DNA from: Limnothrix sp. BL-A-16
Lineage (GTDB): Bacteria > Cyanobacteriota > Cyanobacteriia > CACIAM-69d
Assembly: GCA_041937175.2 (NCBI GenBank)
Contig: CP166615.1
Coordinates: forward strand, 2,368,001-2,432,000
Length of the DNA: 64,000 bases
Direction: 5' to 3'
How positions within the stretch are numbered: the stretch's first letter is position 1; every line of letters starts with the position of its first letter. The notes under the pieces were generated by a model. The model was not told where the DNA came from. It saw nothing but the letters and a program-made list of their open reading frames with translations, and did no database searches. This document shows positions 12,165 to 56,840 of this stretch, piece by piece. The position numbers and the translations under genes are program-made.

Positions 12165-12178
12165 TCCACTTCTAAAGT

Positions 12179-12316
12179 ATGAAGTTTCTTGCGGACGAAA
12201 ATTTCAATAATCAGATTGTACGCGATATTTTACGGCGCAATCCAACCATAGATTATTATTACTTAATTATGCTCTCGCCTACCCTAAAAGATTACTCGAG
12301 TCTTAATTGCAAATGA
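12179..12316 (+). pseudogene. Truncated DUF5615 PIN-like toxin
   Basis: Translates MKFLADENFNNQIVRDILRRNPTID, a typical DUF5615 N-terminus, then unrelated AT-rich sequence and a stop at codon 46; 14 bp after DUF433. Confidence 0.75.
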
Positions 12317-12329
12317 CTTTATCTTAATT

Positions 12330-19301: not shown

Positions 19302-21140
19302 TTACGACGTTTTTCGAGGGAGGCGGCGCGAGGCCCTTGGGGAGCGATCTCCCTGTCGCAACCGGGCGGCTCGATCGAGTAGGGAATCGGCAAAGGCATT
19401 GGCCGCCGCTAGGGTTTCTGTGGAACCCGCCGGGCCGTCGAGGCCCCCGGCCAGTTGGGCCAACTCCAGCCGACGATGTTCGGCTCCCAAGGAACTGAGG
19501 CGCACCACGGTGCGGATGCCTTCCCCATCCCCTTGATCGGCCACCGACTCGGCCAGCGGGGTGCTAATCGTCACCTTGGCCACGCGGAAGTGATGATCGG
19601 CCATGGCCGCCACGATCGGCTGGTGCGTCACGCAAAGCACCTGGTGATCTTGGCTGAGGTGATGGAGTTTTTGGGCGATCGCCTGGGCCACCCGCCCGGA
19701 AACCCCCGCATCAATTTCATCAAAAATCGCCGTTTGTACCTGGCTCACCTGGGAAAAACAAGCTTCAAACGCCAGCAAAAAGCGGCTCATTTCCCCACCG
19801 GAAGCCGTTTCGCTCAGGGGTTGCAAGGGTTCTCCGGGGTTAGGACTGAAGGTGTAGGTGATTCGATCGAACCCGGCCGACGAAGGGGGAACCCGCCCAA
19901 ACTCCACAGCGAACTGCACCCGCTCCATGGCCAGGGGAACCAATTCCGCCACCAGTTGTGTTTCCAGATCCCGCGCGGCCCGGCGACGCAGTTGATGCAG
20001 GCGATCGCACTCGGTTTCAAGGGCTTGATAGGCCGCTTGGTATTGGTGCTCCAAAGACTCCAGGGACTGCCCCCCGTCCGTCAACTCCGCCACCCACTGG
20101 TCCAGCTCATCGCGCCGCGCAATCAGAGCACCCAGATCGAGGTTATATTTCCGGCAAAGGGCCTTGAGTTGCATGATCCGCTCCTCCACCCACTCCAGCC
20201 GATCGGGATCGCTTTCCAGGCTGGCTCCGTAGGCGTTGATTTGCAGCCCCGCCTCCGTGACCTGGGTGAGGGCGCTGGTCACCATCTCCAAAATGGCTTC
20301 CACCTGTCGATCGAACCGGGCCGATCGCTCCAGTAGGGCTTCCGCCTTGCCCAACAGTTCCGCGCAGGAAGCCGCGTCATCGGCCCCGGCATAGAGCAAC
20401 TCATAGGCTTGGTAGCTCTGTTGTTGCAAATCCACCACATGGGTCAGGCGATCGCGCTCTTGCTCCAGGTCAGCCAGTTCCTGCGCTTCCGTGAGGGCCG
20501 CCGCCATTAACTCCTGCAACTGGAATTGATAAAGATCGAGTTGCTGTTGTCGCTGGGCTTCCTGTTGGCGGCGGTTGCTCAGTTGCAGCCACAATTCTTG
20601 GGCCCGGTCATAGGCTTTGGCCACGGCCGATCGCTGCTTCAAAATTGGTGCGCCGCCAAATTCATCCAGCCAATCTCGCTGGGATTCTGCCTGCAGCAAT
20701 TGCACCGTTTGCCCCTGGGCAGCAATGGTCACCAATCGATCGCGCAGGATGGCCATGCGGGCCTTGGGGATGGGTTGCCCATTGCAACGAAACCGGCTGC
20801 GCACCGTGCTGCGGCCGCCTTTGCCTCCATCGCTATTGCCGGGACTGCTGACAATTTCCACGCTGCAAACCAGCCGATCGCCTGTCATATCCCATTGCTG
20901 CACCTTCAGCCAGTCCCGCAGCGATCGATCAATGGCAAAGGTCGCCTCGATTTCTGCCCGATCACAGCCTGTGCGGATCGATCGGGCCGTGATCCGCCCG
21001 CCCAACACCGCCTCGATCGCATCGAGAATAATCGACTTGCCCGCGCCCGTTTCTCCCGTCAGCACATTCAGCCCGGGCCCAAGGGTCACTTCCAGCGCAT
21101 CCACCAGCGCAAAGTTTTCAATCCGCAATGACAGCAGCAT
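19302..21140 (-). CDS. recN: DNA repair protein RecN
   Basis: LRIENFAL, LTGETGAGKSI, ASGGEMSRF, IFDEIDAGVSG, LCVTHQP. Confidence 0.96.
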   Translation of the reverse strand: MLLSLRIENFALVDALEVTLGPGLNVLTGETGAGKSIILDAIEAVLGGRITARSIRTGCDRAEIEATFAIDRSLRDWLKVQQWDMTGDRLVCSVEIVSSPGNSDGGKGGRSTVRSRFRCNGQPIPKARMAILRDRLVTIAAQGQTVQLLQAESQRDWLDEFGGAPILKQRSAVAKAYDRAQELWLQLSNRRQQEAQRQQQLDLYQFQLQELMAAALTEAQELADLEQERDRLTHVVDLQQQSYQAYELLYAGADDAASCAELLGKAEALLERSARFDRQVEAILEMVTSALTQVTEAGLQINAYGASLESDPDRLEWVEERIMQLKALCRKYNLDLGALIARRDELDQWVAELTDGGQSLESLEHQYQAAYQALETECDRLHQLRRRAARDLETQLVAELVPLAMERVQFAVEFGRVPPSSAGFDRITYTFSPNPGEPLQPLSETASGGEMSRFLLAFEACFSQVSQVQTAIFDEIDAGVSGRVAQAIAQKLHHLSQDHQVLCVTHQPIVAAMADHHFRVAKVTISTPLAESVADQGDGEGIRTVVRLSSLGAEHRRLELAQLAGGLDGPAGSTETLAAANAFADSLLDRAARLRQGDRSPRASRRLPRKTS

Positions 21141-21327
21141 GGACCGTTGATTAACCCCACTCGCCTAGCGCTCTCCTAGCTTAAGGCGTGTCGCCTACCA
21201 GGTCGAAAGGCTTGGCAACCGGGAAAGGCTTTCGGCGGCCTATGTTGATCCAGTCGGCCCAGCGGAATGGACGAGAAAACCGAAACAGAACTGATCGTGA
21301 CCCGCAACCAACGAAAACCAGATCGCC

Positions 21328-21354
21328 GTAGGGGTTGGGAAACCCAACCCTGAC
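21328..21354 (+). repeat. REP-like GTAG-headed palindrome
   Basis: gtaggggttgggaaacccaaccc. Confidence 0.5.
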
Positions 21355-21376
21355 CTGAGCGATCGCGACTTTTCAG

Positions 21377-21501
21377 AGGATGTCTGAGAAGTATCTTTCA
21401 ATATGGGCTGAAGATTAATTGTCGTAGAAGGGGCTTGAGCATCTTGTCTACATCGATCTCTGGGGCGTACAGAGTAGCAATTTTGGCTTTTCAGACATCC
21501 T
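21377..21501. mobile_element. MITE family B (~125 bp)
   Basis: 15-bp TIRs aggatgtctgagaag / cttttcagacatcct (1 mismatch); degenerate internal GTAG..aaggggcttgagcatcttgt..CTAC. Confidence 0.65.
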
Positions 21502-21524
21502 TTCAGGTATTGATCAAATATCGA

Positions 21525-22670
21525 TCAAGGGCGCTGTTTCAAATAGGTTTCAATGGCTTGCCGAATATCTTGAGAAAATTGCTCCGTTGAAAACAGTTGA
21601 GCCTGTTTTTCAAGGGCCGATCGCATTCGGTTTTGCAGCTCCGAAGAGGACAGCAGAGCCACAATTCTAGCCACCGCTTCCTCATCATTGGCGAACATCA
21701 ATTCTTTGTTCTGTTCTCCGACAATTTCCACCTGGCCACCGCCCCGATCGCGCACAAAGGGAATCGTTCCCACCTTCACCATTTCCGCGATCGAAATGCC
21801 AAAGGGTTCCTTTTTCCAGTGGAGTCCATAGCGGCAACGGGACAGCACATTCACATAATCGGCATAGCTCAAGTTTTCGTAAAGGGTCACCCAATCGGCA
21901 TTTTCATCAATTTTTTGTTGTAAAAATTGCCGATATTTTTGACCATAAACCCCGCCACCACCGCCTGTGAAATAGAGCTTGATCGGAAAACCCTGATCGC
22001 GCACCCGCTTCAAAATTTCCAGCACCCGATGCGGTTCCTTGGCTTTGGTCAAGCGCCCACTACAGATAAAGGCTTCTTCGCGATCGGGCCAAGCCACCGT
22101 CGGCGCATCCACAGCCACGGGCGGATAAACCACCACCGGTTGGCCGCCATACCGCTCCTGAGTCACCGTGGCCACCATCCGTGAATTGGCGATCGACCAA
22201 TTGCGCCGCATTCTGGCTTCTGAAAACTGCGAAACCCAATAGAAATTCCGATTTTCTAAGACACCCACCCAATGGACATATTGCACCCCATCGCAGCCCA
22301 AATCAATCGCGTTGTAGCCAGAAACTGCCAAGTTATATTGCCGACTAAATTTCTTGAAAAATCGGATGCAAAAGTGGCAAAAAAACTTACGAAAAAACTG
22401 ACTATTGGCGATTAGAAATTCCACCAAATTCTTGAAGGGCGCTGGAATGCAATGGCGCACTTGCACCCGATCGGACAGTTGGGTTCCATAGAGCTGATTT
22501 AACCGATTGAGGTCGAGCGGGGTCAGTGTAAATAATGTCAAGTCATAGTCTGCCTGCAACGCATTCAACATCCACAGGGTCACGGCTTCCGCTCCCCCAC
22601 CCGCAAAAAACGGATAAAAAACCGCGATCGTGGTGGGAGTTTGGGGGCGGGGGTGTTGTTCTGAGGTCAC
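21525..22670 (-). CDS. Glycosyltransferase family 4 (GT-B)
   Basis: GGGAEAV, IANS, VVYPPV, GRLTKAKE, EPFGISIAE. Confidence 0.88.
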   Translation of the reverse strand: MTSEQHPRPQTPTTIAVFYPFFAGGGAEAVTLWMLNALQADYDLTLFTLTPLDLNRLNQLYGTQLSDRVQVRHCIPAPFKNLVEFLIANSQFFRKFFCHFCIRFFKKFSRQYNLAVSGYNAIDLGCDGVQYVHWVGVLENRNFYWVSQFSEARMRRNWSIANSRMVATVTQERYGGQPVVVYPPVAVDAPTVAWPDREEAFICSGRLTKAKEPHRVLEILKRVRDQGFPIKLYFTGGGGGVYGQKYRQFLQQKIDENADWVTLYENLSYADYVNVLSRCRYGLHWKKEPFGISIAEMVKVGTIPFVRDRGGGQVEIVGEQNKELMFANDEEAVARIVALLSSSELQNRMRSALEKQAQLFSTEQFSQDIRQAIETYLKQRP

Positions 22671-22868
22671 GATGAAAAACCAATGAGCGACGAGCGATCG
22701 ACCCGGCCAAGCAGCGGGCCCAGGTCGGGGGCCAATCCACGGGGCGATCGGCTGGGGCCATTATCGCCTAGCCTAACTTTCCCCTCTTTGCCCGCCAAGG
22801 ATTCAGCCAACCGGACAATTCCCCCAGGACGCTCGCTCCGATCATTTCGATCATTTTTTGACAATCAT

Positions 22869-22952
22869 CGGTAACCCGATCGGGAAAGTGGACTTTTTAA
22901 GACAGGAGTGATACCATGCACTGCATTAAACGGTAATCCGATCGGAAAACCG
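22869..22952. promoter_or_regulatory. Two copies of a 22-bp imperfect palindrome, putative operators, upstream of the sulfurtransferase cluster
   Basis: CGGTAACCCGATCGGGAAAGTG (22869-22890) and CGGTAATCCGATCGGAAAACCG (22931-22952), 62 bp apart. Confidence 0.6.
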
Positions 22953-22999
22953 GTCTTTATAGATCCAAGCAGTTCAAGGGCAAATGAGGGTTTCGACAA

Positions 23000-23995
23000 A
23001 TGGGCAGAATCAATGGCAGCGATCGTTGGACAAAACGAGCGTCTCGGCGTTGGCACTTCACAACCTGGCTGTGGGGCATGTTGGCGATCGCCCTTGTGGT
23101 GTTGTTGCCCACTTGGGCCTTGCCCGCCGTCGCCAATGCTCCCAAGGCGAAAATTGAATTTGTGTCACCCCAGTGGCTCAGCCAACATTTGAGTGATACC
23201 AACTTGCGCGTTTTGGATGTACGCAACTCGCCCCTGGACTACATCGGGGGCCATGTTCCCGGCGCTGTGCATATTGCGGATTTAGCCTTTCGCGGCCCCG
23301 ATGGCTTTTTGCCGGTGCAATATTGGGACAACGAAAAAATCGCATCGCTCTTTGGCAAAGCCGGGGTTAACAATCGCCAAAAGGTCGCCGTTTATTCCAA
23401 CGGTAATGACGTGTTAGGCGCAACCATGGTGGCCTACTTGCTGGAGCGATCGGGAGTCAAAGACATTGCGATCGTGGATGGCGGTTTTGCCGGTTATCAG
23501 GCCTCGGGCCAAACCGTCACGAAGGAATATCCCCGGTACGATCGGCAAACATTCCAACTCAAAGACGATCCCTCCGTTCGCGTCGCCCTGGCCGATGTGC
23601 GGAAATTAATTGGTCAACCCAACGTAGTTTTCATTGACCCGCGCCCTCCGGAATTATTCAGCGGTGAAAAACCCCTTTGGGTGCGAAACGGTCACATTCC
23701 CGGTGCCAGAAACATTCCTTGGCCCACCTTTACCGAAGCCAACAATTCCCAGGAAGCGCTCAAGAATCCCCACAAGCTGAAATCCTTGGATGAAATTCGG
23801 CAAATTCTGGCCAGCCGTAACATCACTCCCGACAAGCAAATCATTGTTTCTTGCAGCACTGGGCGGGAAGCTACCTTGCAATATGTAGTGCTGAAGCATC
23901 TTTTGGGCTATCCCAATGTGCGTATTTACGAAGGGTCTTGGACTGAGTACAGCACCACTGATTTACCGGTGGAAACTGGCCCCGATCGCGCCTAG
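23000..23995 (+). CDS. Exported two-domain sulfurtransferase (rhodanese, RhdA-like)
   Basis: Signal peptide (..WALPAVANA); GHVPGAVH, GHIPGARN, active-site CSTGRE, YEGSWTEY. Confidence 0.92.
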   Translation: MGRINGSDRWTKRASRRWHFTTWLWGMLAIALVVLLPTWALPAVANAPKAKIEFVSPQWLSQHLSDTNLRVLDVRNSPLDYIGGHVPGAVHIADLAFRGPDGFLPVQYWDNEKIASLFGKAGVNNRQKVAVYSNGNDVLGATMVAYLLERSGVKDIAIVDGGFAGYQASGQTVTKEYPRYDRQTFQLKDDPSVRVALADVRKLIGQPNVVFIDPRPPELFSGEKPLWVRNGHIPGARNIPWPTFTEANNSQEALKNPHKLKSLDEIRQILASRNITPDKQIIVSCSTGREATLQYVVLKHLLGYPNVRIYEGSWTEYSTTDLPVETGPDRA

Positions 23996-24154
23996 GAATT
24001 AATCCAAAGTTGACTGAACATTCAGTCCAGGATTTGGATTCTTTGGGTCGATTGTCAAAATTGGTCAATCTTAAACCCGTTGATCAGCATTGATCAGGGA
24101 CTGATTGACCAAGCCCCTTGATTCAAAATTACAGCCTTTACCTAGCTCAAGCCT

Positions 24155-24178
24155 GTAGGGCAGGCAATGCCTGCCTAC
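24155..24178. repeat. REP-like palindrome GTAG..CTAC
   Basis: gtagggcaggcaatgcctgcctac. Confidence 0.55.
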
Positions 24179-24299
24179 TCACTGCTTCATACCCCCTGTG
24201 ATGTGACGCACCAATCGTTCTAGGTCAAGGCTGTATGAATCGGCCAGCCTGAATTTTCTGCCAATTATTGCCCCAACCGAAGAACAAGGAGAGATAAAA

Positions 24300-24827
24300 A
24301 TGGCGCTATTTTTGGTTGAAGCATCGATTTTGAATCGGCATGTGGATGAAATTCGCACCGCTCTAGACCAAGTATCGAAGGCTGCACAGGCAACCCATTC
24401 AGAATTGATTGAGGCACAAATTGGTAAGGATCTTTTTCGACTCTTCGCCATCCTCAATGCCCAAGATGAAGTATCAGTACGCGCGGCTTTTTTGAATAGT
24501 AATCTGACGATCGAACTAGTTAAACCCGTGCGCTTGGTGGGGCAAGACCTGACTGTCGTTAGAACCCAAAAGGACAAGGCTAATTACCTTGTGGAATGGG
24601 ATTTGCCAGCGGGGCTGACGATGGACAAGTATTTGCAACGCAAGGCTGAAAAATCTCTTCTTTATGCTCAAGTTCCAACGGTTTCCTTTGAGCGAACCTA
24701 TGTTTGCGAGGACTTGAGTAAATGCCTCTGTTTTTATGACAGTCCCGATGAGGCAACGGTGAAGCAAGCGCGCGAGGTGGTGGGTGCGCCCATCGATCGG
24801 CTCACCAGTCTGGAAACGCTGGACTAA
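24300..24827 (+). CDS. DUF4242 domain protein with additional N-terminal domain
   Basis: C-terminal YLVEWDLP..VSFERTYVCED..KCLCFYDSPDEATV; AAGGAG SD upstream. Confidence 0.75.
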   Translation: MALFLVEASILNRHVDEIRTALDQVSKAAQATHSELIEAQIGKDLFRLFAILNAQDEVSVRAAFLNSNLTIELVKPVRLVGQDLTVVRTQKDKANYLVEWDLPAGLTMDKYLQRKAEKSLLYAQVPTVSFERTYVCEDLSKCLCFYDSPDEATVKQAREVVGAPIDRLTSLETLD

Positions 24828-24914
24828 GACTCAGGTTAATGCCCGGGAAAATGACCAATTTAGGGTCGATTTAGGTCGGTAATTTTGTAGGCAATCATTC
24901 TGTAGGCAATAGAT

Positions 24915-26153
24915 GTGAATACTGGTGTTGTCGATCCACAGGCAATCCGGGCTTTGCTGGCGGAGCAAGCCCAAGCAGTAAATGATGGCGAGGGTTACCG
25001 AGACAGTCGGAACTCATTGCGGCTGTTGGCATCGGTTGGCTGGCTCGGGCTGGGCATTCCCGAGCGCCAAGGCGGGACGGGGGGCACGCGTTTGGATGCC
25101 ATTGAGGCGATCGCCCAAACGGCAGAGGACTGCTTAACCAGCGCCTTCGTGTTTTGGTGCCAGCGAGCCTTTGCGGAATATTTGGTGGCCAGTGATAACG
25201 ACAAGTTGCGCCAAACCCTTCTGCCCCAGGTGGTACGGGCCGATCGCTTCGGTGCGACGGGTTTATCGAACGCCATGAAGCATTTGGCCGGCATTGAGGC
25301 CTTGCGGGTACAAGCCCGTTGGCAGGGGCAACGGTTACGCCTGGATGGCCATTTGCCCTGGGCTTCTAATTTGGTGCCGGGTGAGTTTTTGGTGGCGGTA
25401 GCGGCGGAAACCCCTGAGGGGGAAGCGATCGTGGCGGTGATTCCGGCGAATACCCCGGGCCTGTCGCGTAGTGCGGATTTGGATTTGTTGGGGCTGCGTG
25501 GTTCCAACACGGCGGCCTTAACCCTAGAAGGGGTGGAGGTTGATCGCACTTGGGTTTTGAGCGATCGGGCAAGGCAGTTTTTGCCGACTATTCGACCGGC
25601 ATTCTTGCTGTTGCAGTGCGGTTTGAGTTTGGGCAAGGCTCGATCGGCTCGGCGGGCGATTCGCAACACGCTCCAAACCCGATCGCAGGTCTTGCGGGGA
25701 GCCTTGCAGCAGCTTGATCACCGCTATGACGAGTTGGCCACGCAACTGCGGCAATTGGCGGCGCTCTCCGAGTTTTCCTTCGCTGAAACCCGACATCTAT
25801 TTGAAGTCCGCATTGCCTTAACTCGCCTGGCTGTGGATGCCATCACGTTGGAGTTGGAAGCGCAGGGGGGCGGGGCCTATCTCAACGACCATGCAACGGC
25901 CCGACGCTGGCGGGAAGTGGCGTTCTTGCCGGTGCTCACCCCCAGCTTGGTGCAACTGGAAACGGAACTGGCCCGCGTCACTCCCACCACCGCGATCAAC
26001 CCGGCGATCGAACCAGCCATCAGCCCCACGATCCACAACCCCTCCCGTACAACCCTGACCGCTGCCCCCGTTCTGGCTACGGGGGCCATTCCACCGTCGA
26101 TCGCCAAAGCCGCCGCGAGTCGATCGCCCTCCCGATCGGAGGTCAGGCGATGA
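24915..26153 (+). CDS. Acyl-CoA dehydrogenase-superfamily flavoprotein
   Basis: LGIPERQGGTGG, GATGLSN, LDGHLPWASN, LLGLRGSNTAALTLEGVEV, GGGAY..RRWRE. Confidence 0.85.
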   Translation: MNTGVVDPQAIRALLAEQAQAVNDGEGYRDSRNSLRLLASVGWLGLGIPERQGGTGGTRLDAIEAIAQTAEDCLTSAFVFWCQRAFAEYLVASDNDKLRQTLLPQVVRADRFGATGLSNAMKHLAGIEALRVQARWQGQRLRLDGHLPWASNLVPGEFLVAVAAETPEGEAIVAVIPANTPGLSRSADLDLLGLRGSNTAALTLEGVEVDRTWVLSDRARQFLPTIRPAFLLLQCGLSLGKARSARRAIRNTLQTRSQVLRGALQQLDHRYDELATQLRQLAALSEFSFAETRHLFEVRIALTRLAVDAITLELEAQGGGAYLNDHATARRWREVAFLPVLTPSLVQLETELARVTPTTAINPAIEPAISPTIHNPSRTTLTAAPVLATGAIPPSIAKAAASRSPSRSEVRR

Positions 26154-27136
26154 GTGAGTTGCTGCCGGTGACCGTGGGCCGATCGCCGGATCTGTGGGAG
26201 TCCGGTGAATTACCCGATCGCGTCAATGCCTCAATTTTGCGATCGCCCCCATCGACCGCGCCTCAACCCACCGCACCTCAACCCGGTGTCGCCAACGCTG
26301 CCGCCGATCGGGAGACGGATCGCCCATTGCTGACCGTGCGGGGGTTAACCCATCACTACCCAGTAGGACGCGATCGAGTCCTGGCCTTCGCGCAAATTAA
26401 CCTCGACCTTCGCCCTCGGGAGTTGGTTTGCCTGCTGGGCCCCAGCGGTTGCGGCAAGTCTTCGCTGCTGTTGGCCATTGCCGGTTTGCAACGGGCCACG
26501 GCAGGGGAAGTGCGGCTGAAGGGTCAACCCATCCAAGAGCCACAACCATCGGTGGGCATGGTGTTTCAGGGGTCGGCCTTGCTGCCCTGGTTAACGGTAA
26601 CCCAAAACATTACCTGGGGCTTGAAGTTACGGCGAATGCCGGCCATTGCCAAAGCAGTTGCCCGATCGCGGGCGGCCGAAGCCTTAGCCAGCGTTGGCTT
26701 AGGGGGCGTTGAACGGGCCTATCCTCACCAACTCTCGGGAGGAATGGCGCAGCGGGTGGCCCTGGCGCGGGCCTTGGTGCGGCAACCGGAACTGCTGCTG
26801 TTGGATGAGCCGTTCAGCGCCTTGGATGCGATTACGCGCCGATCGATGCAAGCGTTGCTGCTTCAGGCGATCGCCCGCTACCCAGCAGCCGTGTTAATGG
26901 TCACCCACGACATTGATGAGGCCTTGGCCCTAGGCGATCGGGTGGTGTTGATGGATCGCAATCCCGGGCGGATTCGTCGCCAGTGGATTTTGCGATCGCC
27001 CCCCACAGACCCCAACGATCGCTCCCTGCGAGATCCCGCCGCCCAAGGGGCCCTGCGTCGCGAAATTTTAGAGGAGTTGTTAACCGTGATTGACCCTGTT
27101 GTTCCGCCCTCGATCACGAGAGGTGTGCAGCCATGA
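26150..27136 (+). CDS. ABC transporter ATP-binding subunit (TauB/SsuB/NrtD-like)
   Basis: GPSGCGKSS, LSGGMAQRV, LLLDEPFSALD, VTHD; ATGA overlap with upstream gene. Confidence 0.93.
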   Translation: MSELLPVTVGRSPDLWESGELPDRVNASILRSPPSTAPQPTAPQPGVANAAADRETDRPLLTVRGLTHHYPVGRDRVLAFAQINLDLRPRELVCLLGPSGCGKSSLLLAIAGLQRATAGEVRLKGQPIQEPQPSVGMVFQGSALLPWLTVTQNITWGLKLRRMPAIAKAVARSRAAEALASVGLGGVERAYPHQLSGGMAQRVALARALVRQPELLLLDEPFSALDAITRRSMQALLLQAIARYPAAVLMVTHDIDEALALGDRVVLMDRNPGRIRRQWILRSPPTDPNDRSLRDPAAQGALRREILEELLTVIDPVVPPSITRGVQP

Positions 27137-28455
27137 CGCGCGATCGCCAAGCCCGCGCTCGATCGAGCCGCGCCACCCCCCATTGGATTGCGCCCCCCTT
27201 TGCCAGCGGCCCCACAGCCGGCCTGGGTTGCGACTGCTGCGGCCTCAGCCGACGAGATTTCCTGCAACTCACAGGGCTATTCTCAGCCTCCCTGGGGGCA
27301 ACCCTGGCCGTCGGGGGTTGCCAGCCAACCCAAGGCCCCGCTCAATCTAGCCCCGCTGCTTCAGCCCCTGCGACACCAACGGCCCAACCCCCGGTCAAAA
27401 TTGGCTACCTGCCCATCACCGATGCGGCTCCCCTGTTGGTGGCCCATGCCCGCGAGCTATACCAAGCGGAGGGACTAACGGCCGAAAAACCAACCCTCTT
27501 TCGCTCTTGGCCGCAGGTGGTCGAAGCGTTTTTGGCCAGACAGGTCAATGTCATCCATATCCTGATGCCCGCCACCTTGTGGTTGCGCTATGGCCGCAAG
27601 TTTCCGGCCAAGATTGTGGCTTGGAATCACACCAATGGCTCAGCCCTGACCGTCTTGCCGGAAATTGATCGCCTGGAAGACCTGGGCGGTCGCAAGGTGG
27701 CTGTGCCCTTTTGGTATTCAATCCACAACGTGGTGCTACAGCAACTGCTGAAGAAAGCGGGACTGAAGGTGGTGCGGCGGCCCAAAGAGGCCCAGGTAGC
27801 CGCCAATGAGGTGAATTTAATTGTGCTGCCGCCACCGGATATGGTTTCGGCCCTCGCCAACAAAGCGATCGCGGGCTACATCGTGGCGGAACCTTTCAAC
27901 GCGGCGGCGGAAAACCTCAAAACAGGCAAAATTCTGCGCTTTACCGGGGATGTGTGGAAGGATCACGCCTGCTGTGTGGTGCTGATGCATGAAGACGACC
28001 TCACCCAGCATCCCGATTGGGCGCAGCGGGTGGTGCAGGCGATCGTCAAGGCCCAGCATTGGAGCGGCGAAAACCGCGCAGATGTGGCTGAAATTTTGTC
28101 GAAGGAGGGTGGCAAATATACGCCTCATCCCAAAGCGGCCCTGATGCGGGCCCTAACGGCCTACGACCCAGCCGTTTATCAAGCCCAAGGGGCGATCACC
28201 CATCCCGATTGGCAAATCGATCGAATTGATTTTCAACCCTATCCTTTTCCGTCCTACACCGCTGAGCTGGTGCGCCTGCTCAAGGAAACCCAAGTGGAAG
28301 GAGAAACCCAGTTTTTACAGGATCTTGACCCCGAGTGGGTGGCCCAAGATTTGGTGGATGACTCCTTGGTGAAGGCGGCCCTGGCAGCGGTGGGCGGCCC
28401 CGCTGCCTTCCGGCTGCCGGAAAACCTGACCCGCAAGGAAACGATTGCGCTCTGA
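27133..28455 (+). CDS. ABC transporter substrate-binding protein (NrtA/CmpA/NMT1-like fold), Tat-exported, possible lipoprotein
   Basis: SRRDFL twin-arginine motif, AVGGC; KIGYLPITDA, AVPFWYSIHN, AEPFNA; ATGA overlap. Confidence 0.9.
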   Translation: MTRDRQARARSSRATPHWIAPPFASGPTAGLGCDCCGLSRRDFLQLTGLFSASLGATLAVGGCQPTQGPAQSSPAASAPATPTAQPPVKIGYLPITDAAPLLVAHARELYQAEGLTAEKPTLFRSWPQVVEAFLARQVNVIHILMPATLWLRYGRKFPAKIVAWNHTNGSALTVLPEIDRLEDLGGRKVAVPFWYSIHNVVLQQLLKKAGLKVVRRPKEAQVAANEVNLIVLPPPDMVSALANKAIAGYIVAEPFNAAAENLKTGKILRFTGDVWKDHACCVVLMHEDDLTQHPDWAQRVVQAIVKAQHWSGENRADVAEILSKEGGKYTPHPKAALMRALTAYDPAVYQAQGAITHPDWQIDRIDFQPYPFPSYTAELVRLLKETQVEGETQFLQDLDPEWVAQDLVDDSLVKAALAAVGGPAAFRLPENLTRKETIAL

Positions 28456-28658
28456 AGCTTTGGGGATCACCCCATCCAGCTCGCTTCAGTGCCAATTTCG
28501 CCGGGTCAGTTCCCGATCGATAGATCACAGTCATGCCGAGTCATGCCGATCTCGATTCACGCCGAGTTCGGGGAAGGGTGGCCAACGATTCCACCCATTG
28601 ACCCCACTCATTCAGCATCGTCAAGACAAGCATTAGGCATTGGAGGGATTGAGCGGCC

Positions 28659-29465
28659 ATGGCGGTTGGAATGTGGCAAAAAGCAGGGCGATCGGGCGTT
28701 GCTCGACAACTTCGCGGCGTGTTGGGGATCGTGAGTAGCCCCTTGCTTGGCCTGCTGCTGGGGCTGCTGTTGTGGTGGGTGCTCACGTCCCCGCTGTTGC
28801 ATCCCGGCGCGATCGTGGGGGACTTTTCACCAGAAAAATCGCTCACCACCGTCCTGAAACTGCTGGGTGACGGCACTTTGGAACCCCACATTGGCGCAAG
28901 TTTACGGCGTGTCGTGATTGGCTTAGCCACCGCCGCCCTGATTGGGATTCCCGTTGGCATTGCCCTGGGGCTGTGGCGGCCCCTGGAGCAGGGCACGTCT
29001 ATTCTGTTCCAGTTTGTGCGGATGGTGTCGCCCCTGTCTTGGATGCCGCTGGCGGTGATGGCCTTCGGGATTGGGGATGCGCCCGTGTACTTTCTGCTCA
29101 CCGTGGCGGCGGTTTGGCCCGTGTTGCTGAATGCGGCGGCGGGAGTGCATAGCGTCGATCGGCGCTGGTTGTTGCTAGCCCGCAGCCTTTGTGCAACCCG
29201 TTGGGAGGTGATTGGCCGGGTCATTTTGCCCGCGATCGGGCCACATCTCCTGGTGGGGCTACGCCTCGCGGTCGGCGTGATTTGGATCGTGTTAGTGCCC
29301 GCCGAAATGTTAGGGGTTAGCTCAGGCTTGGGCTACTTCATTTTGGACACGCGCGATCGCTTGGCCTATAGCGAGTTGATGGCGGCCATTTTGACCATTG
29401 GCGCGATCGGCTATGGGCTGGATGCCGGGTTGCGATCGCTCAATCGCCTCACCCATTATTCCTAG
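28659..29465 (+). CDS. ABC transporter permease (TauC/SsuC-like)
   Basis: SLRRV, SPLSWMPLA, ARSLCA, WIVLVPAEMLG; multiple TM helices. Confidence 0.93.
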   Translation: MAVGMWQKAGRSGVARQLRGVLGIVSSPLLGLLLGLLLWWVLTSPLLHPGAIVGDFSPEKSLTTVLKLLGDGTLEPHIGASLRRVVIGLATAALIGIPVGIALGLWRPLEQGTSILFQFVRMVSPLSWMPLAVMAFGIGDAPVYFLLTVAAVWPVLLNAAAGVHSVDRRWLLLARSLCATRWEVIGRVILPAIGPHLLVGLRLAVGVIWIVLVPAEMLGVSSGLGYFILDTRDRLAYSELMAAILTIGAIGYGLDAGLRSLNRLTHYS

Positions 29466-29617
29466 TCCCTGTTGATAGAATTCAGTCAAGCCATAGTCAG
29501 TGAAACCACAAAGAAACTGTGATGTTTAGGCTGATTCTTTTTTGGACATTCTGAATAGCTAATTTCAGAAAAATTTTGAATGATTGCAACAAACCTCAAT
29601 CCTCAATTCTAAATATC

Positions 29618-29977
29618 ATGAGTATTCAAGAAATCATTTCAGGACAAGCAATTTCAGAAATCACACCCGAGACACTCGACCAATGGTTGAAGACTCAAAA
29701 AATCACCTTAATCGATGTGCGAGAATTTCAGGAATTTGAGACAGAGCATATTGCTGGCGCTGTTTTGCAACCCTTGAGTCAACTGAACGGGTTAGATTGG
29801 AGCGCTGAATTGGGAACGGTGGTGTTATATTGCCGCAGCGGCAGACGATCGGCTGAAGGAGGTCAACGACTCTTGCGCGATCGCAATCTACCGTTGGTGC
29901 ATCTGAGAGGAGGAATTTTAGCTTGGAAAGCAGCGGGTTATCCAACCGTCGTGAAGAATGAAAGCGATTCAATTTAG
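29618..29977 (+). CDS. Single-domain rhodanese (ORF open from 29576)
   Basis: LIDVRE..EF..EHIAGA, YCRSGRRS, LRGGILAW. Confidence 0.9.
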   Translation: MSIQEIISGQAISEITPETLDQWLKTQKITLIDVREFQEFETEHIAGAVLQPLSQLNGLDWSAELGTVVLYCRSGRRSAEGGQRLLRDRNLPLVHLRGGILAWKAAGYPTVVKNESDSI

Positions 29978-32237
29978 TTCTGCAAAGTCATTTAATTTTG
30001 GAGAGGCAAGTCACCAAAATCCTGAATGGGATGGTGAAGAATCTGAATTTGGCACTTCACTCAAAATTGGGGTGTTAGCCAACCGAGGATTAAAGATTGC
30101 TGAGTCCATGTGGCAACCAACGGCTGATTATTTATCGGCCGTTGTTTCTGGTCGCGAATTTACAATGGTTCCCCTCAGCTTTGATGATATTCATCAAGCC
30201 ATTGCCAGCCAATCCGTACAGTTTGCCATTGTTAATCCGGGGCTGTATGTGGAGTTTGAAACACAATTTGGCCTGAACCGAATTGCCACTTTGAAAACGC
30301 TGCAATTGGGAAAACCGGCAACGGAATTTGGCGGCGCAATTTTTAGTCGGCGCGATCGCCTGCCCATGACTCAGTTGTCGGATTTGAAGGGGCGATCGGT
30401 GGCGGCGGTGGCGGAAACCTCCCTGGGGGGATGGCGGATGGCGTGGCGGGAATTGGTCGAAGCGGCGATCGATCCCTATCGAGATTTTGCGGCGCTGGAG
30501 TTTTTGGGGAGCCACGATCGGGTGGTGGCCGCCGTGCAATCGGGCCAAGCAGAAGTGGGAATCGTTAGCACCCATGTTTTGGAACAGCTCGCGGGCACGG
30601 GGGCACTGGACTTAAGCACCATTCAAATTCTGCCGCCTCCGGCGATTGTGCCGTCGGAGTTGCCCTTTGCCCTCAGCACTCGGCTTTATCCGGAGTGGCC
30701 CTTTGCCGTTTTGCCCAGGGTTCCTCGGGCGATCGCGGAGGCGGTGACCATTGCGCTGTTGCAGATGCCCGCTGACGCGCCCGCGGCCCAAGCGGCTGGG
30801 GCGGCCGGTTGGACAATTCCCCTGAATTATCAGTCAGTGCATGAATGTTTCCAAGTGCTGCAAGTGCCACCCTATCGGGACTTTGGGCGCACCACGGCGA
30901 GCTTTGCCCTGGCGGTGAAGGGATCCCATGATGGTCTGTGGGATTGGATGGTGGAAACGGGCCGAACGCTGTTTTCTGATCGCTGGGCAGCTTTGTTGGG
31001 CTATCAACCCGCAGACATTCCGCCCCATGTTGATCAATGGTTCGATCGATTGCATCCCGACGATCGCGATCGATTCACTCAGGCCTTAAGCCAATTTTTT
31101 GCCAGCGATCGAACCCAATGGGAGTTGGAATATCGCCTGCGACATCGTGATGGTTCCTATCGCTGGGTGTTGTGCCGAGGAACCTTGCAACGGAACTATC
31201 AAGGGCGACCCTACCGCATGGCCGGTTCCCACACCGATATTACCAATCGTAAACAGGTGGAAGACCAGCTCCGAACGTCCAAAGTCCATTTACAAGAAAA
31301 GGCACAAACCCTGCAAGCCACCTTGCAAGAGTTGCAATCAACCCAACTCCAACTCATTCAGGCAGAAAAAATGTCGAGCCTCGGTCAGTTAGTGGCGGGA
31401 ATTGCCCATGAATTGAATAATCCTGTCAGTTTTATCTATGGCAATATGCGCTATCTCGAAGAGTATGCTTCGGAGCTGGTGAAGATTATTCAACTTCTAA
31501 AAAAACACCAAGAATCGCCTCATTTGCAAGAAGAAATCCTTGATCAACTCGATCTAGATTTTATTCAGACTGACTTACCCAAGCTGATTACCTCAATGAA
31601 GACTGGCACCGATCGCATTCGATCGCTAGCCCTGTCTCTGCGTAATTTTTCAAGGGTTGACGAAGCGGAGATGAAGGCAGTGGACTTACATGAGGGGTTG
31701 GAAAGTACGCTTTTGATTTTGCAGCATCGACTCTTACCCTCTTTAAAGGGCTTAGAGATTCAAATCGATCGCCAATATGGTGATTTGCCGCTGGTGGAGT
31801 GCTATCCCGGGCAAGTGAACCAGGTTTTTATGAACTTACTCAGCAACGCAATTGATGCCCTTGAAAGTCAGTTTCAGCCGTTGGCCTATGGGGTTTCCGA
31901 TCGCGAGGATTCTGTGAAACTCGTTCCCAAAATCACCATTCAAACGGTTGTGGAAGATCATGAGGTGGTGGTTAAAATTACCGATAACGGCACGGGCATT
32001 AACCCAGAGGTGCGATCGCGCATTTTTGACCCCTTTTTCACCACAAAGCCGATCGGTCAGGGCACTGGTTTAGGCCTCTCGATCGCCTATCAAATTGTGG
32101 TGGAGCAACACCATGGTCGGCTCAGTTGCCAGTCTGCACCGGGTCAAGGAACGGGTTTTGAAATTCGGCTGCCCCGACGCGCGGGCTTGACAATCACTTC
32201 TCAATTGCCCGCGCCGGAACTGGCGGAAGCGCTTTAG
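29958..32237 (+). CDS. Sensor histidine kinase: PhnD/SsuA-type binding domain + PAS/PAC + HisKA + HATPase, no TM helix
   Basis: KIGVLANRG..WQPTADYL, STRLYPEWPFA, GWTIPLNY; DGLWDW..LHPDD PAS; AGIAHELNNP, NLLSNAIDA, DNGTG, FFTTKPIGQGTGLGL. Confidence 0.9.
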   Translation: MKAIQFSSAKSFNFGEASHQNPEWDGEESEFGTSLKIGVLANRGLKIAESMWQPTADYLSAVVSGREFTMVPLSFDDIHQAIASQSVQFAIVNPGLYVEFETQFGLNRIATLKTLQLGKPATEFGGAIFSRRDRLPMTQLSDLKGRSVAAVAETSLGGWRMAWRELVEAAIDPYRDFAALEFLGSHDRVVAAVQSGQAEVGIVSTHVLEQLAGTGALDLSTIQILPPPAIVPSELPFALSTRLYPEWPFAVLPRVPRAIAEAVTIALLQMPADAPAAQAAGAAGWTIPLNYQSVHECFQVLQVPPYRDFGRTTASFALAVKGSHDGLWDWMVETGRTLFSDRWAALLGYQPADIPPHVDQWFDRLHPDDRDRFTQALSQFFASDRTQWELEYRLRHRDGSYRWVLCRGTLQRNYQGRPYRMAGSHTDITNRKQVEDQLRTSKVHLQEKAQTLQATLQELQSTQLQLIQAEKMSSLGQLVAGIAHELNNPVSFIYGNMRYLEEYASELVKIIQLLKKHQESPHLQEEILDQLDLDFIQTDLPKLITSMKTGTDRIRSLALSLRNFSRVDEAEMKAVDLHEGLESTLLILQHRLLPSLKGLEIQIDRQYGDLPLVECYPGQVNQVFMNLLSNAIDALESQFQPLAYGVSDREDSVKLVPKITIQTVVEDHEVVVKITDNGTGINPEVRSRIFDPFFTTKPIGQGTGLGLSIAYQIVVEQHHGRLSCQSAPGQGTGFEIRLPRRAGLTITSQLPAPELAEAL

Positions 32238-32379
32238 GATCTGTCGTCATTTCCTGGAATCCCGTGAAAACGGTTGATCTTCCATACCCTAATCAACCCA
32301 GACAAGGGGCTTAAGCCCCTTGCCCCCCACGATCTGCTAACGGCAGATCTAGGGTTTTGGGTGAAATGACGACAGGCCC
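32237..32379 (-). mobile_element. MITE family A copy 3 (143 bp, inverted), TA-flanked
   Basis: Ends ggatctgtcgtcattt / aaatgacgacaggccc; reverse complement of 7791-7932. Confidence 0.85.
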
Positions 32380-32452
32380 TAATCGCAGCCGAAATAACCA
32401 CCGATCGCCCGCAAATTTCGGGCAGGTTTCGGGTTGAATCGATCCTTTGGAA

Positions 32453-33001
32453 TTACAAATCCAAAAGACCCGGGGGAGGCACAATTTCCAGACGCTTGGT
32501 TATTAGGTCAACGATCGGGACAATTTCATCCACAAAGGGAATCAAAATCACCTGTTCGGAATCTGTAAGCTCCACCTGCAACAGATCCTGAGCAGCAGTC
32601 GCCAGACCCACCACTCGCCCGATCGGGGCCTGTTGCACCTGATCAAACACCTCCATTCCCATCAAGTCCATCAGGTGATATTCCCCCGCTTCCAAGGGAG
32701 GGCGGCTGTGGGCCGAAACTAGCAACTTAGCTCCCCGGAGGTTTTCGGCACTGGTGCGATCGACCACTTCCGCAAACCGCACCACATACAGATTTTGCTT
32801 ATTCAGATATCGGCCGCTCAACAGGCGCACCGGTTGGGGTTCGTCCCGCCCGAGCTTGGCCCCCGGCGGCAACAACCAGCGCTGGCCCGGCTCCATAAAT
32901 CGTTCTGGAAAATCGGAGTCGGGATAGACCCGCAGTTCCCCCCGCAGACCTTGGGGGGCAACAATTTTGCCCACTTCGAGCCAATCATCAGGGGTGCTCA
33001 T
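32453..33001 (-). CDS. rimM: Ribosome maturation factor RimM
   Basis: VGKIVAPQGLRGELRV, EYHLMDL.G, LIPFVDEIVP. Confidence 0.95.
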   Translation of the reverse strand: MSTPDDWLEVGKIVAPQGLRGELRVYPDSDFPERFMEPGQRWLLPPGAKLGRDEPQPVRLLSGRYLNKQNLYVVRFAEVVDRTSAENLRGAKLLVSAHSRPPLEAGEYHLMDLMGMEVFDQVQQAPIGRVVGLATAAQDLLQVELTDSEQVILIPFVDEIVPIVDLITKRLEIVPPPGLLDL

Positions 33002-34089
33002 GGATGTAAAGAGGAGGTAGAGGTCAAGGAAGGGGATGAACTATTGCCGGTGGCTTGGCCGGTGGTCTGATCGGTGGTCTGATCGGTTGGCTGGCTGCCT
33101 GACTGGCTGCCTAAGGGGCTGTCTGAATGGTTGTTGGGATGACTATGGGCATGGCCGTTAGTTTGGCCATTGCTGTCGATCGGTTGGGCGGGCGGGGTCA
33201 CGGGTTCCAAACCAGCCATCTGCAAAATTTCGGGAATTAAGTCCTCGCGGCGCACCGCCATCATATGGACTCCCTGACAAATTTGGCGGGCCATGGCCAC
33301 CTGTTCAGCGGCGATCGCCATGCCCTCGCGCAAGGGGTCTTGGGCCCGAGCCAGGCGATCGATCAAATGCTGCGGAATTTCCACACCTGGCACATTGCGG
33401 TTGATAAATTCCGCATTTTTCGCTGATTTCAGCAGAAAGATCCCCGCCAAAATTGGCTTTCCGCAACCGGCAGCCACCTGGGTCATGAACTGATCCAAGC
33501 GATCGAAGTCGGAGATCAATTGGCTTTGGAAAAATTGGGCCCCGGCAGCTAATTTGCGCTGAAAACGCCGCTGCACTCCCGACCAGCTCTTGCATTGGGG
33601 ATCCACCGCCGCTCCGACGAACAGATCCGTTCCGCTATTTTCCAAGGGGCGATCGGCCGCATCTTGCCCTTGGTTCAGTCGCTTCACCGCTTCCAACAGG
33701 CGCACCGCTTCCCAGTCAAAGACGCTGCGGGCTTCGGGAAAGTCACCGGCCTTCACCGGGTCACCCGTGAGGGCCAGCACGTTCTGAATCCCCAGGGCAT
33801 GGGCCCCCATCAAGTCCGCTTGGAGGGCAATTCGGTTGCGATCGCGACAGGCCACTTGCCACACGGGTTCAATGCCTCGTTGCAACAGCAAGCTCGCGGC
33901 CGCCAACGAAGACATCCGCAACACAGCCCGGCTGCCGTCGGTGATGTTCACCGCATGAACCCAAGGTTGCAACTGCTCGGCCATGGCCACCATGTGGCTG
34001 GCATCGCTGCCCTTCGGTGGCATCACCTCGGCGGTCACCAGAAAAGTGCCAGCGCTGGCAGCAGTACGAAAACGCGATAACACGGGCAT
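32998..34089 (-). CDS. metF: Methylenetetrahydrofolate reductase with low-complexity C-terminal tail
   Basis: EVMPPKG, NITDGSRA, CRDRNRIALQ, ALTGDP, GAQFFQSQ, GVHMM. Confidence 0.88.
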   Translation of the reverse strand: MPVLSRFRTAASAGTFLVTAEVMPPKGSDASHMVAMAEQLQPWVHAVNITDGSRAVLRMSSLAAASLLLQRGIEPVWQVACRDRNRIALQADLMGAHALGIQNVLALTGDPVKAGDFPEARSVFDWEAVRLLEAVKRLNQGQDAADRPLENSGTDLFVGAAVDPQCKSWSGVQRRFQRKLAAGAQFFQSQLISDFDRLDQFMTQVAAGCGKPILAGIFLLKSAKNAEFINRNVPGVEIPQHLIDRLARAQDPLREGMAIAAEQVAMARQICQGVHMMAVRREDLIPEILQMAGLEPVTPPAQPIDSNGQTNGHAHSHPNNHSDSPLGSQSGSQPTDQTTDQTTGQATGNSSSPSLTSTSSLHP

Positions 34090-40897: not shown

Positions 40898-41746
40898 GGA
40901 TCGCGATCAAATCGAGTTGGGTGGCGGTTGCAAAAGACCCGATCGGGCGACCAATTTCGGAGCGATCGCGGCCCATGGGTGACCGCAATGCACAATTACA
41001 ATGCACAATCACCCAGGGCGATCGTTCCAATGCCCAATCCGTCAGGCTTGCTTCTCTAGTCTAATGGTCTGTCTTGTCTGGAACCGCGCAGAACCGGCAA
41101 TTCTCGGGCAATTAACCCCTATTGGTGCAAATCGCGATCAAATAAATTTTGTTGCAGGTCAAAATTGATCTTTTAGGCATTCCAGATGTTTATTAAAGAT
41201 TTTTAGGTGTTTTTTTGTTTCCTTTGCTTGGTCTTTGTCTTGATCTAATTATTCAAATTCAACCATTTTGATTTGATTTTGATTTGATTTTTATCAATTT
41301 ATTTTCATGAGCTTTTATGAGTTTTGATAATCAGATTTTAATCATAAACTAGATTAAATTAGTCAATTTTCAAAAACAATCAAGGCAATGATTAAGTTGT
41401 TTTTTGATTTAGCAAATGACTTCGATCATGAATCTTAGTCGATACTGTTCAGCATTTGGTGCTGATCTTTCAGATAGCTATGGGCAGGGGGTGAGTTAGT
41501 TATCATTCTTGGGGATCGTTGCGATCGCCCATGACAATTATTCATCCCCAGTATTTATTGATTGATCAATCTTTTTGGGGTTTCCGGGATTTGTCCCAAC
41601 TTTCCTGATTCTTAGAAATCATTTGGAGAGCAGAGAGCACAATTCCTGAACCTAAAAATCAGGGAGCAAAGTGGCTGTCCTTCAGGTTTGAGCTTCAAGA
41701 AACATCAGCCGCTTTGGCCCTGATAGAAAAGACAATAGCCTCTTCA

Positions 41747-56794: not shown

Positions 56795-56840
56795 ACAAAC
56801 CTACTAGCAAACGAGTCAATCCATGAATTCCAAAAACACC

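Follow-up and report, generated by a model that had tools for sequence, protein, structure and literature searches.

A candidate sulfur-scavenging operon in Limnothrix sp. BL-A-16 assembled around a widespread five-gene core

In the genome of the cyanobacterium Limnothrix sp. BL-A-16 (4.56 Mb in two contigs), eight genes form a compact cluster at positions 22869-32237 of a 64,000-nucleotide stretch of contig CP166615.1 (positions 2,368,001 to 2,432,000; hereafter, the window). The genes encode, in this order, a two-domain rhodanese (RhdL), a DUF4242 protein, a protein with the acyl-CoA dehydrogenase (ACAD) fold, the ATPase, substrate-binding protein (SBP) and permease of an ATP-binding cassette (ABC) importer, a single-domain rhodanese (RhdS) and a histidine kinase. 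The cluster is a local assembly around a five-gene core, DUF4242-ACAD-ATPase-SBP-permease, that is already sequenced, widespread and biochemically uncharacterized. In general terms, the locus very likely represents a sulfur-scavenging importer combined with a flavoenzyme under CysR-type control. The more specific proposal, that the locus is a sulfur-starvation operon whose CynABD/NrtABCD-like importer takes up thiocyanate, is advanced here tentatively.

A five-gene core with variable neighbors

Orthologs of the ACAD-fold protein are encoded in nine of 400 other cyanobacterial genomes (44-54% identity), and paralogs in five more (29-32%). Comparison by tblastn of all eight proteins with 20-kb stretches around 13 of these 14 relatives (the contig of the 14th being too short) reveals the five core genes in the same order and on the same strand in eight of the nine ortholog loci, with identities of 49-59% for the ATPase and 58-72% for the SBP. 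In the ninth locus (L033; L-numbers denote the 165 loci compared here and G-numbers denote genomes), the SBP gene is lost and the ATPase and permease genes are shortened. The latter encode proteins of 221 aa and 179 aa (L033:10507-11723), a decayed-looking transporter beside intact rhodanese, DUF4242 and ACAD genes.

A wider scan of one genome per prokaryotic species yielded 569 ACAD relatives, so that the core is common, and gene order was read around the best 80 of these. The DUF4242-type core is found in 16 loci, five of which are the same as loci of the cyanobacterial sample; these come from several cyanobacterial genera, a metagenome-assembled genome (MAG) of Armatimonadota and other MAGs. 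In 63 loci, one of them broken by a contig end, the first position is occupied by a carboxymuconolactone decarboxylase (CMD)/AhpD-like gene followed by the ACAD, ATPase, SBP and permease genes; most of these loci are from Pseudomonas, the others from genomes such as those of Stutzerimonas, Cupriavidus, Sideroxydans and an Enterobacterales member. The remaining locus contains the ACAD gene alone. The AhpD-type arrangement is present also on annotated plasmids of Deinococcus, Agrobacterium and Variovorax, whereas the loci of the ACAD paralogs (26-32% identity) contain an OsmC-like gene in the slot of DUF4242, along with a TetR gene. A single slot is therefore filled by three unrelated small cysteine proteins, namely DUF4242, an AhpD-like protein with a CxxC motif and an OsmC-like protein that keeps one of the two usual cysteines (1-Cys). 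No fusion of an ACAD-type protein with a partner was detected among the best 120 of 208 matches sized 226-721 aa; longer forms were not searched. A Cupin_6/AraC-family regulator adjoins the AhpD-type module in all six proteobacterial loci examined (e.g., L072:7376-8287) and on the Variovorax plasmid; this candidate ligand-specific activator could report the true inducer.

The core genes of the window belong with the systems of the Synechococcus elongatus plasmid pANL and of the Pseudomonas aeruginosa PA2327-PA2331 type, with which they share gene order and orthologous ACAD, SBP and permease. The preliminary description of this DNA, which had found that the cluster fits no recognized pathway, was thus fair as regards biochemistry, but the core itself is already annotated on pANL and matches PA2327-PA2331. 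A literature search found no assigned function for the five-gene core, and the names given to the ACAD-type enzyme in the sources are limited to 'acyl-CoA dehydrogenase family' or 'AidB-like'. In Staphylococcus aureus USA300, a DUF4242 gene (RS00910) is reported directly beside an ssuB-annotated ABC ATPase gene (RS00915), both being down-regulated together in the data presented there (PMC9796851).

In the window, the core consists of the plus-strand genes for the DUF4242/SCO4226-like protein (24300-24827, 175 aa), the ACAD-fold flavoprotein-like enzyme (24915-26153, 412 aa), the NitT/TauT-type ABC ATPase (26150-27136), the SBP (27133-28455) and the permease with five hydrophobic segments (28659-29465). 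The real unit is the small cysteine protein, the ACAD-fold protein and the ABC importer; the two rhodaneses and the kinase are variable, lineage-specific add-ons. RhdL (23000-23995, plus strand, 331 aa) combines two Rhodanese domains (116.9 bits) with one N-terminal hydrophobic segment (residues 18-48), as expected of an exported protein, and resembles the exported sulfur-starvation rhodanese RhdA in this layout. Its orthologs are present in four of the five module-bearing genomes tested (64-70% identity); among these, the gene adjoins the module only in G023, and in the other three, it lies 34-570 kb away. Only three distinct DUF4242-type loci have RhdL next to the module, namely the window, L033 (72% identity) and L065. 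In the last of these, from Pantanalinema (L065:13021-15631), genes for the RhdL-type rhodanese and for a membrane protein of the YeeE/YedE type ('Sulphur transport', PF04143) lie downstream of the module permease.

RhdS (29576-29977, plus strand, with an uncertain TTG start codon) adjoins the module in the window only, among all module loci compared, and an overlapping RhdS-kinase pair is found in one other genome (L146). The kinase (29958-32237, plus strand) consists of PhnD-like (Phosphonate-bd), PAS, HisKA and HATPase_c domains. It is adjacent to the module in two loci, the window and L050, a MAG locus in which the kinase gene is divergent from the module. Orthologs of its sensor are encoded in seven of the 400 cyanobacterial genomes, none of which encodes an ACAD ortholog. 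The protein is predicted to be soluble, with a maximum hydropathy of 1.35 over 19 residues and no segment reaching 1.6; because membrane segments are lacking, the sensor is most likely cytoplasmic. It scores 185.4 bits with the TtrS model NF040750, far below the equivalog cut-off of 750, and the periplasmic placement of the PhnD domain is not found. Elsewhere, a kinase ortholog is split into two overlapping open reading frames (ORFs) beside a DDE transposase gene (L149:7932-10062), and in one protein encoded beside CheW (L148:2511-4733), the sensor domain, PhnD-like and 47% identical, is joined to a methyl-accepting chemotaxis protein (MCP) signaling domain, which would be a chemoreceptor version.

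These distributions bear on the original proposal that all eight genes constitute one integrated system for import, processing, transfer and sensing. The genes are co-directional and tightly spaced, with an operator upstream of the first one; L033 and L065 also have a rhodanese beside the module, and L050 has the kinase there; and kinase orthologs elsewhere are located near MgtC (SrpB-like) and NIL genes. Nevertheless, such an integrated system is unlikely because most module loci lack the rhodaneses and the kinase, the kinase and the module never occur together in the 400-genome sample, and no response regulator is adjacent to the kinase in the window. The expected co-occurrence across genomes is seen for DUF4242, ACAD and SBP but not for the rhodaneses and the kinase, and only the five core genes travel together.

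Sulfur-related context and a candidate CysR box

The sulfur link proposed from the window alone is supported by the loci of other genomes. The core is found in sulfur-acquisition islands in all four non-Microcystis-type genomes examined and on pANL, and an upstream palindrome is shared. The neighbors include two TauD genes, a sulfatase, a peroxiredoxin (Prx) and an NMT1 SBP in L031; MgtC, an SrpC-like chromate transporter, cysK, gamma-glutamyltransferase (GGT) and formamidase genes in L032, with a Prx gene near the module; an sbpA-cysTWA sulfate transporter, a Crp-family gene, NIL and MgtC in L033; and sbpA-, cysA-, ssuD-, ssuA- and ssuC-like genes in L034. In Sideroxydans, the module is followed by genes for O-acetylhomoserine sulfhydrylase, homoserine O-succinyltransferase and a rhodanese.

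The duplicated palindrome noticed earlier ahead of the cluster is a 38-nt direct repeat. Its two copies share 76% identity and lie 62 nt apart, and each contains a palindromic core of 22 bp. Copy 1 (22862-22899, core 22869-22890) is a putative operator of the CysR type, that is, for a Crp-family regulator; copy 2 (22924-22961, core 22931-22952) fits the generalized pattern CGGTWW-N10-WWACCG. The exact 19-nt degenerate pattern is represented in the 4.56-Mb genome by copies 1 and 2 only. The closest other genomic copy (C1:3755018-3755039; L163:4019-4040) precedes a CysR-like gene of the Crp family by 25 nt, which suggests autoregulation, and this gene is 45% identical over the full length to the Crp-family gene within the sulfate-transport cluster of L033 (the CysR arrangement). 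Across the 165 loci, the palindrome is found at six distinct sites outside this genome, all cyanobacterial and all upstream of sulfur genes: 24 nt upstream of DUF4242 in L050 and L065, before ssuA-like genes (L034/L053 and L043) and an ssuD-like gene (L049), and 32 nt before an sbpA-like gene (L071). By our rough estimate, fewer than one site would be expected in the approximately 0.6 Mb of cyanobacterial loci at the background rate of this genome. None was detected in the 63 proteobacterial loci. Given that it is shared with the CysR-like gene and with promoters of sulfur genes, the palindrome is probably a CysR box, a candidate that is open to direct test.

In the window, the palindrome precedes RhdL rather than DUF4242, and the 304-nt spacer between these two genes holds only a dispersed structured repeat; therefore, RhdL was probably inserted behind the operator and would be co-transcribed with the core. 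A further copy of the palindrome with two mismatches (C1:4535902) was dropped from consideration as it lies inside a long ORF. The genomic Crp-family gene is surrounded by GmrSD and Uma2 nuclease-like genes and by glycosyltransferase genes.

The importer, the enzyme pair and the question of the substrate

The importer is of the NitT/TauT type, the SBP (NMT1_2, 159.6 bits), permease (BPD_transp_1, 72.2 bits) and ATPase (ABC_tran, 117.5 bits) all being above the respective cut-offs. The SBP carries a twin-arginine (Tat) signal and a lipobox-like cysteine. The analogy with TauABC and SsuABC drawn in the preliminary description thus stands for the importer type but is weaker than that with CynABD and NrtABCD, both by tblastn and by the scores in the PDB. 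In one tblastn run, the SBP gives 130-139 bits with cynA-like SBPs versus 42-49 bits with ssuA-like ones, the permease following the same trend, and in a PDB sequence search it matches NrtA at 2e-14 and TauA at 7e-6, with a resemblance to CmpA as well. The scores with the sulfonate importer models SsuA_fam (TIGR01728; 102.8, cut-off 163.5) and TauA (NF008553; 31.4, cut-off 490) are too low for assignment, and the matches of the ATPase and the permease to the ntrCD and ntrB models, respectively, are below the cut-offs as well. Judging by these sequence comparisons, the importer leans towards the cyanate/nitrate/bicarbonate branch rather than towards the sulfonate importers. The best PDB match of the SBP is 3un6, presumably an S. 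aureus protein, whose entry name ('ABC transporter substrate-binding protein') specifies no ligand.

Taken at face value, these affinities would be compatible with a system for a non-sulfur anion (nitrate, cyanate or bicarbonate) whose location among sulfur genes would be incidental, and a cyanase gene is indeed found beside paralogous clusters. This explanation appears very improbable, however, because the matches to nitrate models are all below cut-off, a sulfur-island setting recurs in several families, sulfur genes are preceded by the palindrome too, and the genome has a separate cynABDS-like cluster. The latter, about 0.5 Mb from the window (C1:1870819-1874280; L150), encodes a cynA-like SBP, 29% identical to that of the window, along with a permease, an ATPase and cyanase (cynS).

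Additional hints come from genes that adjoin the module in other genomes. Cyanase is encoded in two of the four OsmC-type clusters examined (L040 and L041). In L043, an OsmC-ACAD paralog pair is combined with the transporter type of the window (SBP 72% identical); therefore, the two transporter types appear to be interchangeable for the enzyme pair. A cytosolic beta-carbonic anhydrase (beta-CA) homolog with an intact metal site is encoded between the SBP and permease genes in L049, L050, L051 and L054 and adjoins the module in other loci; among PDB proteins, it matches carbonyl sulfide (COS) hydrolase at 3e-31 and CS2 hydrolase at 4e-27. An active cytosolic carbonic anhydrase harms the cyanobacterial CO2-concentrating mechanism, which favors a role of this homolog other than that of a carbonic anhydrase. 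Rhodaneses recur beside the module (L033, L065 and Sideroxydans) and in the OsmC-type locus L041.

The cyanate-type importer, the cyanase, the beta-CA homolog of the COS hydrolase clade, the recurring rhodaneses and the reported induction of the P. aeruginosa genes by hydrogen cyanide (HCN) together point to thiocyanate, the one small anion that both is a sulfur source and can yield cyanate or COS. Thiocyanate is thus favored as the substrate, albeit tentatively. A profile search with PF02979 (NHase_alpha, the type of thiocyanate hydrolase) gave no match in the genome, and likewise none in the control genomes. Thiocyanate utilization in S. elongatus reportedly requires CysR; literature searches that linked thiocyanate with CysR, PCC 7942, acyl-CoA dehydrogenase or Pseudomonas sulfur supply found nothing relevant.

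Among the N-terminal, middle and C-terminal domains of ACADs, only Acyl-CoA_dh_N passes in Pfam for the ACAD-fold protein (30.8 bits). The AlphaFold2 (AF2) model, with an overall predicted local distance difference test (pLDDT) score of 85.7, is confident over residues 4-368 (below 50 for residues 369-412, a disordered tail; the conserved part spans residues 1 to about 360) and shows the three-domain fold, with Foldseek template modeling (TM) scores of 0.71-0.75 to many ACADs at 16-21% identity. In this search, true ACADs and DszC rank alike. The positions that are invariant across 26 family members include T115, G116, S118 and N119 (TGLSN), W149, N152, Q234, E334, T342 and P343. The invariant Thr-Pro (T342-P343) is found in the stretch where many ACADs would carry the catalytic Glu, as placed by analogy with medium-chain acyl-CoA dehydrogenase. 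The DUF4242 and OsmC types share two cysteines, C73 and C82, in place of which the AhpD (CMD) type has S and G.

The DUF4242 protein matches PF14026 over residues 96-169 with 67.8 bits (gathering score 28.5), and its AF2 model (pLDDT 91.4) consists of tandem ferredoxin-like repeats that form an alpha+beta barrel, the N-terminal repeat being visible only in the model. Foldseek yields TM scores of 0.55-0.60 to dimeric alpha+beta-barrel, ABM/Dabb-type and chlorite-dismutase-like proteins, and sequence search finds no solved relative. Three cysteines of the C-terminal repeat (C136, C142 and C144) are invariant in all 12 aligned sequences. The namesake SCO4226 is reported to bind nickel (PMC4186839). 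A complex prediction for the ACAD-fold protein (residues 1-365) and the DUF4242 protein, each with an alignment, scored 0.00 and gives no verdict.

The resemblance of the enzyme to flavoproteins of organosulfur metabolism makes it necessary to consider that the system scavenges organosulfur compounds, importing a sulfonate- or sulfinate-type substrate that would be attacked by a group-D flavin monooxygenase akin to DszC, SfnB or MsuC, with the cysteine partner handling a reactive sulfur or peroxide by-product. The enzyme weakly matches NCBIfam SfnB (TIGR04022, 50.1 bits), 3-sulfinopropanoyl-CoA desulfinase and DszC, with 22.7 bits for the model NF043015 of the SfnB/DszC/MsuC group, as well as MsuC (6u76) and TdsC (5xb8) in the PDB sequence search; ssuD-, ssuA- and tauD-like genes and a sulfatase gene are among the neighbors of the module. 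However, all these family scores are far below the cut-offs (430.9 for TIGR04022 and 850 for NF043015), so that the enzyme is not an equivalog of these families. Neither the window cluster nor the core of any locus examined encodes a flavin reductase; the FMN reductase gene in L049 adjoins an SsuD-like gene outside the core. Furthermore, in the same tblastn comparison, the importer is closer to the cynABD type than to the ssuABC type, and the cyanase, the COS-hydrolase-clade beta-CA homolog and the HCN induction are left unexplained. Organosulfur scavenging is therefore a strong competing explanation, although a less probable one.

Thiol peroxidases make up two of the three partner families, which brings up stress defense, in which the flavoprotein and a peroxidase-like partner would detoxify hypothiocyanite, an organic hydroperoxide or another oxidant or species derived from cyanide, with sulfur co-regulation being secondary. 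The Prx genes near the module in L031 and L032, the catalase-family SrpA on pANL and the reported induction of PA2328-PA2331 by HCN fit this scheme. Nevertheless, the link between the genes for an SBP-dependent importer and the enzyme through 4-nt overlaps argues for a wanted substrate, the sulfur-assimilation neighbors point to nutrition, and PA2328-PA2331 mutants are described as showing no hypochlorite sensitivity (PMC10687435). Defense thus appears quite improbable as the primary role.

Under the thiocyanate hypothesis, the Tat-exported lipoprotein SBP would capture a small sulfur-bearing anion, most likely thiocyanate, in the periplasm, and the ABC system would import it. The flavoprotein and its cysteine partner would then detach the sulfur, which would end up either as sulfane bound to the enzyme or as sulfide for use in cysteine synthesis, with the carbon-nitrogen remainder leaving as cyanate or COS. 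The remainder might be handled by cyanase, for which this genome has a gene at another locus, or, in other species, by the operon-encoded beta-CA homolog of the COS hydrolase clade. In Limnothrix, the exported RhdA-like rhodanese would have been placed between the operator and the core, and RhdS and the soluble PhnD-PAS kinase would be appendages rather than parts of the conserved machine. That the ACAD-fold protein and its interchangeable cysteine partner represent an unrecognized flavin-dependent thiocyanate-desulfurizing enzyme, served by a dedicated thiocyanate ABC importer, is a possibility that we consider with reserve.

Several observations weigh against the thiocyanate hypothesis. The substrate is deduced from neighboring genes only. 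The cyanase adjoins only the paralogous OsmC-type clusters and could belong to an ordinary cynABDS operon; the best PDB matches of the beta-CA homolog are ordinary carbonic anhydrases (6e-43), and no such homolog was found in this genome with that query, nor in most DUF4242-type loci. SsuA_fam, although below the cut-off, is the best NCBIfam match of the SBP, the weak similarity of the ACAD-fold protein to SfnB, MsuC and DszC fits an organosulfur substrate, and a TauE/SafE-like gene inside the L050 operon hints at sulfite or sulfonate. No cysteine is universal in the ACAD-fold protein, given the replacement of C73 and C82 in the CMD type. The HCN induction in P. aeruginosa is known second-hand only. 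With respect to regulation, Microcystis-type loci have no sulfur neighbors, and CGGTWW-N10-WWACCG is not over-represented genome-wide (five sites versus 16 for the reversed control).

If the thiocyanate hypothesis holds, the pair would provide a third biological route of thiocyanate breakdown, in addition to those through thiocyanate hydrolase and through copper thiocyanate dehydrogenase, and one that is spread over cyanobacteria, Pseudomonas and other bacteria. It would explain part of the sulfur region of pANL and the HCN-induced PA2328-PA2331 genes as a means of recycling sulfur lost to cyanide detoxification. More generally, a core that takes sulfur from thiocyanate or another small anion would fill a gap for freshwater cyanobacteria and soil bacteria under sulfate scarcity, would tie cyanide production to sulfur recycling in pseudomonads, and would constitute an enzyme class of interest for thiocyanate-laden waste water. 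The cluster is of greater interest than an ordinary ssu or tau locus. Its core is found in model organisms, namely S. elongatus (pANL) and Pseudomonas (PA2327-PA2331 type), and the thiocyanate hypothesis is directly testable in S. elongatus.

Locus organization and comparison with known systems

The organization of the locus agrees with the preliminary description. The ORF list contains eight plus-strand ORFs between 22869 and 32237, with the genes running co-directionally from 23000 to 32237; the ORF coordinates give ATGA overlaps of 4 nt each at the ACAD/ATPase and ATPase/SBP junctions and an overlap of 20 bp between RhdS and the kinase; and no SsuD, SsuE or TauD domain is detected by Pfam in the cluster proteins. 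In gene order, the Pfam assignments are Rhodanese (two domains), SCO4226-like, Acyl-CoA_dh_N, ABC_tran, NMT1_2, BPD_transp_1, Rhodanese and the four domains of the kinase. The flanking genes all lie on the opposite strand, with recN and a GT4 glycosyltransferase gene at one end of the cluster and rimM and an MTHFR gene at the other, and the DNA of the window is HIP1-rich and cyanobacterial in character.

The ACAD/ATPase junction region (25990-26315, about 330 nt) is low-complexity coding sequence rich in Pro, Thr, Ala and Ser and is GC-rich (0.62 in the 26001-28000 bin). It accounts for a disordered ACAD tail of about 50 aa and an ATPase head of about 60 aa, both of low complexity and neither found in orthologs, with both frames open and the 4-nt overlap kept. 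The ATGA junction is 4 nt in L031 and L032 as well. The spacer between RhdL and DUF4242 contains a structured element of 126 nt (24120-24245, plus strand) with a folding energy of -47.9 kcal/mol (z = -5.1 versus shuffled sequences). A riboswitch was considered and rejected because the element belongs to a small dispersed repeat family, with one further copy (72%) and three fragments at other places in the genome, and it is probably not a specific regulator. An Rfam scan of positions 20000-34000 with E-values up to 1 gave no match, the spacer element included, and a scan for sigma-70 promoters and terminators performed no better than on shuffled sequence. Elsewhere in the window, the GC content dips to 0.44, 0.48 and 0.49 at 12001-14000, 40001-42000 and 56001-58000, respectively, against a background of 0.55-0.60; these regions may be islands. 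RNA sequencing runs with the same species label are large poly-A or cDNA libraries, and four raw-read runs yielded one read in total over 21400-33100; the label probably belongs to an organism other than the cyanobacterium, so that these runs provide no expression test.

Among the known systems, the closest one is that on pANL of S. elongatus PCC 7942, where all five core genes recur in the order seen in the window (WP_011055166 to WP_011055170), with an ACAD-fold protein that is 53% identical to that of the window. There, the core follows the genes for the catalase-family SrpA, MgtC (srpB), the chromate transporter (srpC), cysK and GGT. The pANL region is described as sulfur-regulated, with many of its genes in the CysR iModulon, a statement made at the level of the region (PMC11420160, PMC9239245). 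Unlike the locus in the window, it is plasmid-borne and has no adjacent rhodanese or kinase.

The PA2327-PA2331 genes of P. aeruginosa and their Pseudomonas homologs encode the ACAD-fold protein (45-49% identity), the ATPase, a Tat-exported SBP (55-61%) and the permease in the same order, but with an AhpD-like CxxC protein in the first position instead of DUF4242 and an adjacent Cupin_6/AraC regulator. The orthology of the core to genes with these PA numbers appears likely from the annotations and from the SBP Tat signal, which in two Pseudomonas loci is identical to that given for PA2328, listed as a Tat substrate in the same source, at 34 of 36 positions (PMC6085387). For PA2328-PA2330, the annotations given are NrtA-like, ABC ATPase and acyl-CoA dehydrogenase-like, respectively, and the three genes are reported to fall along with sulfur-assimilation genes in a mutant transcriptome (PMC8466066). 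A table that cites Frangipani 2014 lists PA2328-PA2331 as induced by endogenous HCN (PMC10687435).

The CynABDS and NrtABCD systems of cyanobacteria belong to the same transporter subfamily, with an NMT1_2 SBP that carries a Tat or lipoprotein signal; the operon in the window differs in lacking a cyanase, in the union of the importer with an ACAD-fold enzyme and a cysteine-rich protein, and in its sulfur context. The SsuABC and TauABC importers with SsuD or TauD, and the SfnB, MsuC and DszC enzymes, share with it the logic of a sulfur-starvation importer paired with a flavoenzyme, as well as the ACAD fold, whereas its family scores are below cut-off and it has no reductase and no SsuD or TauD. 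Finally, TtrS and ThsS resemble the kinase of the window in the fusion of an N-terminal PhnD-like binding domain to a histidine kinase, from which the latter differs in the lack of membrane segments, the extra PAS domain and the lack of an adjacent response regulator.

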